Origin: a virus
Taxonomy: Duplodnaviria; Caudoviricetes
IMG/VR virus record: IMGVR_UViG_3300048895_000041
Coordinates: 1 to 43,461 of that record
Strand: one strand, 5' to 3'
Length of the DNA: 43,461 bases
Positions 33,636 to 35,350 of this stretch are shown here, piece after piece (within the stretch, counting starts at the first letter, position 1; each line of letters starts with the position of its first letter). The notes below the pieces were generated by a model, which worked only from the letters and a program-made list of their open reading frames with translations, was not told where the DNA came from and ran no database searches. Made by a program: the position numbers and the translations under genes.

Positions 33636-35153
33636 ATGCCTATCGGCAAGACCACGGCACCCTACGGCGTCGAGCAGCCCTATGGCTTGAGCGATCTGAC
33701 GCCCGTTCCGAAAATAGGCGGGAACGGAACTGGAGGCAGTGGCGCCACTGGTCCGGCTGGGCCTACAGGTCCCGCGGGACCGACTGGCGCCACTGGCGCT
33801 ACGGGTCCTGCCGGCGCCACTGGTGCAACAGGAGCGACTGGCCCAACTGGCCCAACTGGAGCGACGGGCGCGACAGGGGCAGCAGGGCCAACGGGCGCGA
33901 CAGGCGCCGTTGGTGCAACAGGCCCTACTGGACCCACGGGGCCTACTGGTCCGACCGGAGCTACCGGCGCCACAGGCCCGACCAATCGTTATCTCGGCAC
34001 GGCATCCGGCACGAACACGTACACGGTCACGACGACACCTGCGCCGAGTGCGTACACGACGGGCGACATTTACTACATCGTTTTCACCAACGGCAACACC
34101 AGTACAGCGACGTTGAACAACAACTCGCTTGGAGCTAAGGCAATCCAGTTTCAGCAGGTGGCATTGGGAGCAGGAACTATCCCAGCTAACGGCATGCTGA
34201 TCCTGAAATATGACGGCACACAGTTCCAGATCGAAGGCACGGCGATACCGGATGCTTCAGTTGCGCTGACCAAGTTGGCAACGCAGGCCAACGGAACGAT
34301 TCTGGCAAATTTCAGTGGTGGCGTGGCATCGCCAACAGCGAGCACTCCGGATGCCGACTTGATCCAGCGCACCTACTACGCCAGCAGCACGTCCGGCACA
34401 TCGACCTACACCGCAACGCTGGCTCCAGTCCCGACCGCCTACGTAACCGGCGCTCAGTACGTGTTCACGGCGTCAAACACGAACACCGGCGCGAGCACGA
34501 TGAACTTTAACTCGCTCGGCGCGAAGACTTTGCAGTTGAACGGCGCGGCTCTGTCGGCCAATCAGCTAATAGCGGGGGCCACTTACCAATCGGTTTACGA
34601 CGGCACGAATCTGCAAATCACCGCATCGAGCTATGCCGTTGGGACCGGCATGGTACGAATAGCCCAGGTCGTCACCTCCAGTTCCGCCACGACGATCACC
34701 TTCAGCAGCATTCCAGGAACGTTTGAAAATCTCGTCCTGAAGTTTTACGGGCGCGCAACAGGTGCGACGGGCGTCGTTCAAGTTCACATGAAGTTGAACA
34801 GCGATGGCAGTATAGGAAATTACCCGAACGCTCAGCAAATAGTAGGCAATGGAGCATCCGCAGTCGCCGGGTCAAATGCCGCCACTGCCGATGGCGGCAC
34901 GGTATTCCCAATCAGCGGGACTTCTGGGGCTACCAACCCGCTTACTGTGGCAACCCTTGATGTCAACGGCTACGCCAGAACTGCGTTCAACCACATGGTC
35001 CTGTCGCAATTTTACGCTACGTCCAGTTCCAACGTTGGTGGATTCGAGTCGTTTCTGTGGGCGAGCACGGCGGCAATCACGCAGATCGACATCAAGATTG
35101 CGTCAGGGTCGTTTGCCAATGGGACCGTGTGCACGCTGTACGGCGAGAGTTGA
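33636..35153 (+). CDS. Tail fibre 2 with collagen-like repeat, duplicated module and C-terminal beta-sandwich tip
   Basis: 27 Gly-X-Y triplets; two copies of GT.TYT.T..P.P.AY.TG...NT...T.N.NSLGAK; C-terminal AITQI.I....F.NG....LYG. Confidence 0.85.
33741..33983 (+). repeat. Collagen-like (GAT/GPT/GPA)27 coding repeat
   Basis: Degenerate 9-bp period repeat. Confidence 0.9.
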
Positions 35154-35155
35154 GT

Positions 35156-35350
35156 TCATGACTCGGCATAGAGTGTGCAAACCGCGCCATCCAAGAATTT
35201 CCAGTCTGGATTGGTCAGGTTGATGGATAGAAGCAGTCCATCATTACTATAAGTTGCTGTATATTTTGTAGCGCCGAAAATTTTGCAAAGCGGCGTTCCG
35301 AAAATTTCAGCACATTCTTCAATTGGAATTTCTACGGTTTTAATACTCAC
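35156..35350 (-). CDS. 64-aa protein whose C-terminus resembles the tail fibre 2 C-terminus
   Basis: GTGA overlap start with AGGTG RBS; ends FLDGAVCTLYAES versus fibre [15 protein letters not shown]-rich. Confidence 0.65.
   Translation of the reverse strand: MSIKTVEIPIEECAEIFGTPLCKIFGATKYTATYSNDGLLLSINLTNPDWKFLDGAVCTLYAES

Follow-up and report, generated by a model that had tools for sequence, protein, structure and literature searches.

The last gene of the leftward operon in this phage genome, an orphan that we call the mini-gene, ends in codons that match the end of the facing tail fibre gene, begins with codons that resemble the phage's own cro gene, and is absent from two relatives; it is therefore likely to be a young, dispensable patchwork gene. 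The account that we favour, and to which we give about even credence, is that the gene arose by illegitimate recombination, came under weak purifying selection and plays a minor role. This single case is real and unusual: its parents can be traced, and a relative serves as a natural deletion control. The DNA analysed here (the window) is a complete phage genome of 43,461 nt with terminal repeats that originates from soil metagenomes. Its virion genes are of the epsilon15/phiV10-like podovirus type, and an 844-aa protein shows 34-35% identity to its SPN1S, Tyrion and phiV10 counterparts among the 25 of 126 matches listed. The rightward arm has the P22-type cro gene (42755) first and tail fibre 2 (end 35153) last, and the leftward arm consists of small genes running from about 42.7 kb down to 35156 (Table 1). 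The mini-gene stretch is unbroken, with 0 differences, in contigs of two runs (X1 and X2), which may be the window's own source. The mini-gene is also annotated as a gene in a protein collection (P0001), with a start further upstream.

Table 1. Features of the mini-gene, its neighbours and its likely source pieces (positions in the window).
Feature	Position	Strand	Basis
Tail fibre 2	33636..35153	+	505 aa; ORF list; Pfam Collagen E 7e-12; PHROGs tail fibre matches
Tip domain of fibre 2, residues 336-505, 12-strand beta-sandwich	34641..35150	+	22 + 22 homologues; AlphaFold2 pLDDT 92.5
Putative fibre source arm, final 14 codons + stop	35109..35153	+	9/14 residues identical to mini-gene
2-nt spacer, symmetry centre between two TGA stops	35154..35155	.	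Sequence; stop-spacer-stop also in X4 (piece to 35159)
Putative fibre-derived arm of mini-gene, final 14 codons + stop	35156..35200	-	0/200,000 anchored shuffles; 9/11 to P0032 fibre
Mini-gene, 64 codons, orphan, last in leftward operon	35156..35350	-	GTG start; 64 aa
Internal 10-nt direct repeat, 24 nt apart (35298-35307 and 35274-35283)	35274..35307	-	Unique to this spot in genome
Cro-like start of mini-gene, codons 1-21	35288..35350	-	8/17 residues to window's Cro
SD-like AGGTGA (35355-35360) and GTGA start/stop overlap with upstream gene	35347..35360	-	Sequence
Upstream early gene, 261 aa, coiled coil	35347..36132	-	Last codons in common with X4
P22-type Cro, 66 aa, first rightward-arm gene	42755..42955	+	PF14549 E 1.4e-8, above cut-off; P22 Cro 1RZS E 0.003

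Fibre 2 and the mini-gene end tail-to-tail with their TGA stops 2 nt apart, as a preliminary description of this locus had stated. The gapless alignment of the last 25 residues reported there exists, but it holds only 10 identities, 9 of these within the final 14. Over the final 11 codons we likewise count 8 identical residues, 6 of them written with different codons (including a Ser, AGT/TCA); the DNA identity is 21/33 on recount, not 22/33. The mismatches fall mostly at third positions, as described, with 8, 9 and 4 of 11 bases identical at codon positions 1, 2 and 3. This similarity withstands shuffling: the end-anchored BLOSUM score of 53 was reached in 0/200,000 shuffles. The unanchored score was matched in 3/5,000 shuffles against the fibre and in 4/1,000 against the whole genome, and a search of the mini-gene against its own genome returned the fibre at E 0.005. 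Further up, at codons -32 to -12, only 2/21 residues and 18/63 nt are identical; scored in register with BLOSUM, these codons stand slightly above shuffles (p 0.009; one of four intervals tried), and on the tip profile this upstream part was equalled in 11/600 shuffles, or in 138/600 once the three residues adjoining the core were removed. The signal shared by mini-gene and fibre is confined to the last 11-14 codons, and the residues further up are near chance. RNA folding at the junction is no better than in shuffles (z -1.36 and -1.20), and no terminator hairpin or terminator-like site was found there. Because only 4/11 third positions are identical and the junction does not fold beyond expectation, the sequences support a common origin of the two C-termini that did not run through a recent hairpin duplication.

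The junction can be read in two relatives. X4, a 24,239-nt rhizosphere contig from a separate study, has the tip in common with the window over 34658-34822 and 35026-35159, then joins 35159 to 35358 via 10 other letters, and the mini-gene is absent (one contig, with 28 nt on the far side). In X4 the frame of the upstream early gene continues to the stop position that the mini-gene uses in the window, and 6/9 bases ahead of this shared stop still mirror the fibre end (binomial p 0.01); they may be what a deletion left behind, or a small hairpin from which the copy started. The listed differences of X4 agree with a fibre protein, P0032, at 3/3 checkable residues. Three more P0032 differences explain at least 3 of the 4 unlisted X4 bases, so at most one lies within the last 31 nt; the X4 and window fibres differ in at most 3 of the last 33 nt. 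P0032 has an Asp for the window fibre's Asn, the same as the mini-gene, which raises identity with the mini-gene to 9/11. It carries the same tip on a different stalk; tips therefore move between stalks within the group. P0033, a true tip, keeps 15/21 of the upstream and 8/11 of the final residues. The second relative, G001, is complete (42,568 nt) and has an identical Cro, another fibre-2 tip, two extra late genes and no mini-gene. The mini-gene is thus present in 1/3 phages with a readable junction, and was either gained in the window lineage or lost in X4.

The same relatives record other exchanges. The Cro protein of G001 (L159:10001-10198) is 100% identical to that of the window and the virion proteins are only 34-73% identical, a pattern that points to recent exchange of the control region. 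In the early region (35358-39317), the matches between X4 and the window are only about 25-45 nt long and sit at gene boundaries (35358-35385, 35650-35679, 37293-37318, 37533-37579, 38612-38654 and 38876-38917) with different genes in between, which has the appearance of boundary-linked module shuffling. In fibre 1 of G001 (L159:1912-2158), a block of about 70 residues that occupies the N-terminal part of the window protein (residues 303-372) lies near the C-terminal end, apparently a module relocated inside the gene.

The codon pattern is stronger against the relative's allele than against the window's own. The excess of third-position differences gives Fisher p 0.03 with the window allele and 0.004 with the X4 allele, and of the 9 identities to the relative's allele, 7 are spelled with different codons (p 0.004). 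A neutral-copy model, in which the copy drifts and the fibre gains synonymous changes only, is rejected with the X4 allele (p 0.007) but not with that of the window (p 0.08). These comparisons are with fibre alleles, the mini-gene having no homologue. The preliminary description took it as selection on the peptide rather than a recent hairpin duplication. The 4/11 third positions and the unremarkable folding of the junction bear out its second half, and a protein-level pattern is indeed present, but divergence inherited from a donor allele fits equally well as selection, and the pattern alone therefore does not establish selection for mimicry. A more general caution follows: sequence that is 'conserved in protein, not DNA' over 11 codons can stem from a diverged donor allele and not from mimicry.

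Fibre 2 is laid out as a collagen-like repeat, two related stalk domains and a C-terminal jelly-roll tip. The tip domain has 361 BFVD matches at E <= 0.001; against the PDB its best Z is 7.4, with ties among glycosidase sandwiches, Pgp3 and C1q/TNF-like heads. In the tip model, the motif common to the mini-gene is predicted to form the last strand (163-169). When the final 11 residues of 362 distinct family ends were compared with the fibre, 6 came at least level with the mini-gene (five at 8, one at 10); the maximum in a smaller first set was 7/10 among 130 family ends. The Cys at -7, present in the mini-gene, occurs in 2/362 family ends, and the Glu (at -2) and the Asp common to the fibre lineage and the mini-gene each occur in 2%. 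Since residues as rare as this Cys and Glu are in common, the mini-gene tail belongs to the lineage of fibre 2. Two clear changes set it apart. The Gly at -3, found in 361/362 family ends, is Ala in the mini-gene, so that of the C-terminal LYG motif only LY is retained; the other is Thr/Ser to Ala, with Ala in 1% of family ends. The whole tip domain of about 165 residues, with its N-terminal FSSIP motif, is absent from the mini-gene, which scores 1.6 bits on the tip-family profile (43/3,000 shuffles as high; hhalign probability 2.9%). The convergent pair that the preliminary description proposed to look for in related phages did not recur beside other family members: the best score among 263 convergent ORF pairs at 158 loci was 26, vs 53 here.

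The tip family is very abundant in phages (an estimated 1,800 or so IMG/VR stretches) and has no Pfam or PHROG model. Tip genes stand in tandem, two or more and mostly threes, in about 70/80 IMG/VR loci by a count by eye; L016, L061 and L080 have two or three such triplets, and at L069:4969-6564 a single ORF with three tandem tip-family domains represents a fused triplet. The triplets suggest, from gene order, heterotrimeric heads. Fibre 2 is like collagen fibres with C1q/TNF-like heads in combining a collagen repeat with a beta-sandwich head (C1q Z 6.0-6.6), but its tip stays below Z 8 and is tied with glycosidase and lectin sandwiches; this comparison concerns the fibre only.

The N-terminal part of the mini-gene, about 40 aa, had been described as showing little or no similarity. 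This holds against the fibre but not against the genome, where residues 5-21 resemble the Cro encoded at 42755, a likeness that appears to be new. Over mini-gene residues 5-21 and Cro residues 4-20, 8/17 are identical (E 0.22 in a search against the phage's own genome), and the match includes the Cro N-terminal helix and FG turn. Cro ranks top among 1,856 start-anchored peptides (score 41, next 28; start-anchored p 5e-5). Genome-wide, the start-anchored score was equalled in 23/1,500 shuffles with all starts and in 10/1,500 with ATG starts (p about 0.01); unanchored, a score of 41 is at chance level (311/1,000 shuffles as high). The Cro allele of locus L160 is closer, with 9/17 residues and 32/51 nt identical and a local DNA score reached in 0/1,000 shuffles, and at the 7 sites that separate the L160 and window alleles the mini-gene agrees with L160 at 4 and with the window at 0. 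A comparison of mini-gene and Cro by hhalign gave E 0.0005 at a probability of 32%. We consider it quite probable that the start of the mini-gene derives from cro.

Support for the likeness stops short of a whole Cro. MAFFT and hhalign alignments reach residue 38 or beyond; residues 22-53 scored against a three-sequence Cro profile were equalled in 1,922/5,000 and in 424/600 shuffles, and on that profile a full-length Cro paralogue has no support past residue 21. No Pfam family, PF14549 included, matched the mini-gene at E <= 10, and the window's Cro passes. Relative to P22-type Cro (PF14549; family background in PMC6649833), residues 5-21 correspond to the first strand-helix-turn, but the mini-gene lacks support for the helix-turn-helix or the rest and is not a family member. 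Codons 22-28 look like a tandem copy of codons 13-19. A third parent, the primase stretch 5914-5967 (mini-gene residues 34-51; 7/18, E 0.084), was dismissed as chance (141/1,000 shuffles; DNA p 0.12). The two arms have a DNA identity of about 63-64% to their nearest sources (32/51 and 21/33), as if they were of like age.

Modest support for the mini-gene as a real gene comes from its coding signals. The SD-like AGGTGA at 35355-35360, which we take to resemble the anti-SD, and the start/stop overlap are arranged the same as in other early genes. Only 1.7% of base shuffles leave the frame open; in simulations it survives a neutral load of 0.1-0.3 per site in 49-19% of cases, before indels and a 1-in-3 frame match are counted. 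The gene is AT-rich, as had been noted (GC 41.5% vs 59.9% for the genome), and its codon adaptation is 0.49, other early genes having 0.47-0.77. A single-sequence model of the protein, made with no control, predicts strand-helix-helix-strand-strand at pLDDT 68; the fibre-derived tail is its least confident part (pLDDT 52 and 44). No RNA dataset was listed as containing the mini-gene stretch.

Homologue searches of the mini-protein returned only itself in a word-indexed search, IMG/VR, GTDB genomes, GenBank phages and the ESM Atlas, and nothing in Pfam, PHROGs or PADLOC (best E among PDB sequences 1.2). The sole metagenome match, L081, proved to be a short stretch inside an ORF that is presumably subtilase-like, and 5 other phmmer matches among 1.84 billion proteins were repeat proteins. 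The fold search that had been proposed, run with the mini-protein model, gave no clear match (BFVD best E 0.2; PDB best Z 4.6, many of them GNAT N-terminal halves). Degenerate DNA patterns of the shared C-terminus had 0 matches in IMG/VR, 0 in GTDB and 1 unrelated locus elsewhere; DNA scans with P0032 found 3 loci, all unrelated to the window's phage. In the literature searched, mostly outside subscription journals, there was no report of a cro-start/fibre-end chimera or of a convergent fibre-tip mini-gene.

Two similarities, a symmetric stop-to-stop junction, absence in relatives and a genome with no recombinase are jointly observed, and the patchwork account would join them as follows. The fibre arm would have formed by fold-back or inverted recombination at the self-complementary stop-to-stop junction; because both frames end at mirrored stops, fibre codons copied in this way would be automatically in frame. 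The cro start would have been brought in by a second jump, which makes at least two jumps necessary; both source pieces flank the leftward arm, and one compound event is therefore possible. The middle would consist of a short internal duplication and filler. Translation would likely proceed by coupling to the last early gene, and weak purifying selection would afterwards have kept the product, a small cytoplasmic alpha/beta protein whose accessory role, if any, would be minor. Such a protein should be unable to work as a Cro, because the recognition helix lacks support, or as a receptor-binding tip, because it has one clear strand of twelve. Phage mosaicism is said to arise by illegitimate and homeologous recombination.

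It is possible, if doubtful, that the mini-gene is a non-functional relic whose last 11-14 codons were picked up from a related phage with a diverged fibre allele, leaving an ORF that is decaying or tolerated. The synonymous differences would then have accrued while both copies were working tips, and tips are indeed swapped within the group, as P0032 shows. Both clear amino-acid changes violate family rules (Gly to Ala where 361/362 have Gly; Thr/Ser to Ala where Ala makes up 1%), the gene combines low GC with low codon adaptation (0.49), it is missing in 2/2 relatives with a readable junction, and simulated frames stay open under neutral decay in 19-49% of runs. However, the donor would have to be saturated at third positions and yet near-identical in protein, and X4 differs at no more than 3/33 nt; nor does a relic sit well with an SD-like site, a start/stop overlap and a frame that runs unbroken from the cro frame into the fibre frame. 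An early decoy selected to present a host sensor or protease with the fibre's last strand, and perhaps with Cro's first helix, or to poison the assembly of related fibres, is an unlikely reading. It would account for the steep gradient in which 8-9/11 residues are kept and similarity over the 21 beyond them is close to chance (both parts are preserved in P0033, a true tip), but the same gradient is expected if only 14 codons were ever copied. The 7/9 identities to the relative's allele written with different codons (p 0.004) speak for it, as do a patchy presence that suits accessory counter-defence genes and the precedent of DSAD1 (PMC10973363). The tail is predicted to be loose in the mini-protein model, but the tip model places the motif within the folded sandwich, as one of its strands. 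Only one of 12 strands is clearly in common, the mini-gene departs from the family at its near-invariant Gly, and X4 carries the same tip and does without the mini-gene; these points leave mimicry, and also the chaperone and receptor-blocker roles put forward in the preliminary description, as conjecture. Also against a decoy, the 263 convergent ORF pairs included no second case (best 26 vs 53), and no sensor of the tip domain was found in the literature searched. A decoy with two epitopes, Cro's first helix and the fibre tip's last strand, that would be made early and maintained by selection to sequester whichever host sensor or protease recognises these ends, or to poison the fibre assembly of related phages, strikes us as unlikely indeed.

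That two related tip ends stand tail-to-tail also brings to mind the invertible tail-fibre cassettes known as Mu G and e14 P, and the mini-gene would then be a remnant of such a cassette; we consider this very improbable. The preliminary description had already remarked that no invertase is encoded, and resolvase/invertase PF00239 and tyrosine recombinase PF00589 indeed have 0 matches in the complete genome (controls positive 12/14 and 14/14). No exact inverted match of at least 11 nt exists between 33636-35100 and 35200-36300, the 25 longest inverted pairs, those listed out of 68, include no crossover site, and no second complete tip in opposite orientation was found: the match is limited to the last 11-14 codons of a gene with a Cro-like start. 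With no recombinase, crossover repeats or second full tip, the inverted-cassette relic suggested earlier is not borne out; a host invertase may act in trans on this locus. Nor do we credit, beyond a trace, a chance match in an unrelated orphan gene: short local matches are common (a raw score of 44 in 141/1,000 shuffles), but the score of 53 falls in exact mirror register at a shared centre (0/200,000) and rare residues are in common. Diversity-generating retroelements have a reverse transcriptase and template and variable repeats that differ at adenines. We set this mechanism aside: PF00078 has 0 matches in the complete genome (control positive 3/14), and the differences involve all bases and follow codon position.

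Several known systems resemble parts of this picture. Chimeric or remodelled orphan genes are treated in PMC12315717. Like them, the mini-gene is short, AT-rich and lineage-restricted, stands at the end of a shuffled early operon and is made from pieces of older genes; it differs in that a single 43-kb genome has both likely parents, which open and close the opposite arm and contribute their own frames in register with start and stop. In yeast, template switching at short perfect inverted repeats inside genes (PMC8604942) likewise overwrites one arm with a copy of its partner, altering several codons in one step without adaptation, but the window's arm of 33-42 nt spans two convergent stops and has since diverged at third positions. 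In e14, the P segment yields StfE2, a small chimeric fibre-derived protein that blocks adsorption of other phages (PMC12529663). There, as in Mu G, tail-fibre pieces are opposed; those systems use a serine recombinase, crossover repeats and a whole-tip swap, none of which is in the window. DSAD1 mimics the tail tube protein and blocks DSR2 (PMC10973363). Like the mini-protein under the decoy reading, it is a small phage protein proposed to imitate a virion protein, but binding is proven for DSAD1, whereas the mini-gene's likeness to the fibre is one of descent.

The origins of phage orphan genes have stayed open because it is seldom possible to trace their parents. In this case a single complete genome has two likely parents, and the junction of a relative lacks the mini-gene, so that birth by recombination of own-genome scraps becomes directly testable, as does any function that the product may have gained. 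If the decoy reading were true, it would hint at a host sensor for a very common, uncharacterised tip domain; if the two-epitope form were true, a counter-defence gene would have been caught at birth with both parents still next door.

Elsewhere in the genome, a promoter-like sequence ends a few bases before the cro ATG (42549-42955), and a profile search of the complete genome, with positive controls, found no integrase and no S24 repressor; in the relative L161 a repressor-like gene adjoins cro. The window phage probably descends from a temperate phage and is now lytic. The early genes at 39314-39589 and 42376-42591, both small and hydrophobic, have similar starts (MEMN/MELN..., E 0.3) and may be paralogues, and a third early gene (41939-42379) encodes a membrane-anchored protease-associated/lipoprotein-like product (phrog_11227, E 1e-53). 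From its position and motifs, the gene at 11522-13291 is the probable large terminase; its PHROGs match is only to a family of no known function, phrog_2472.
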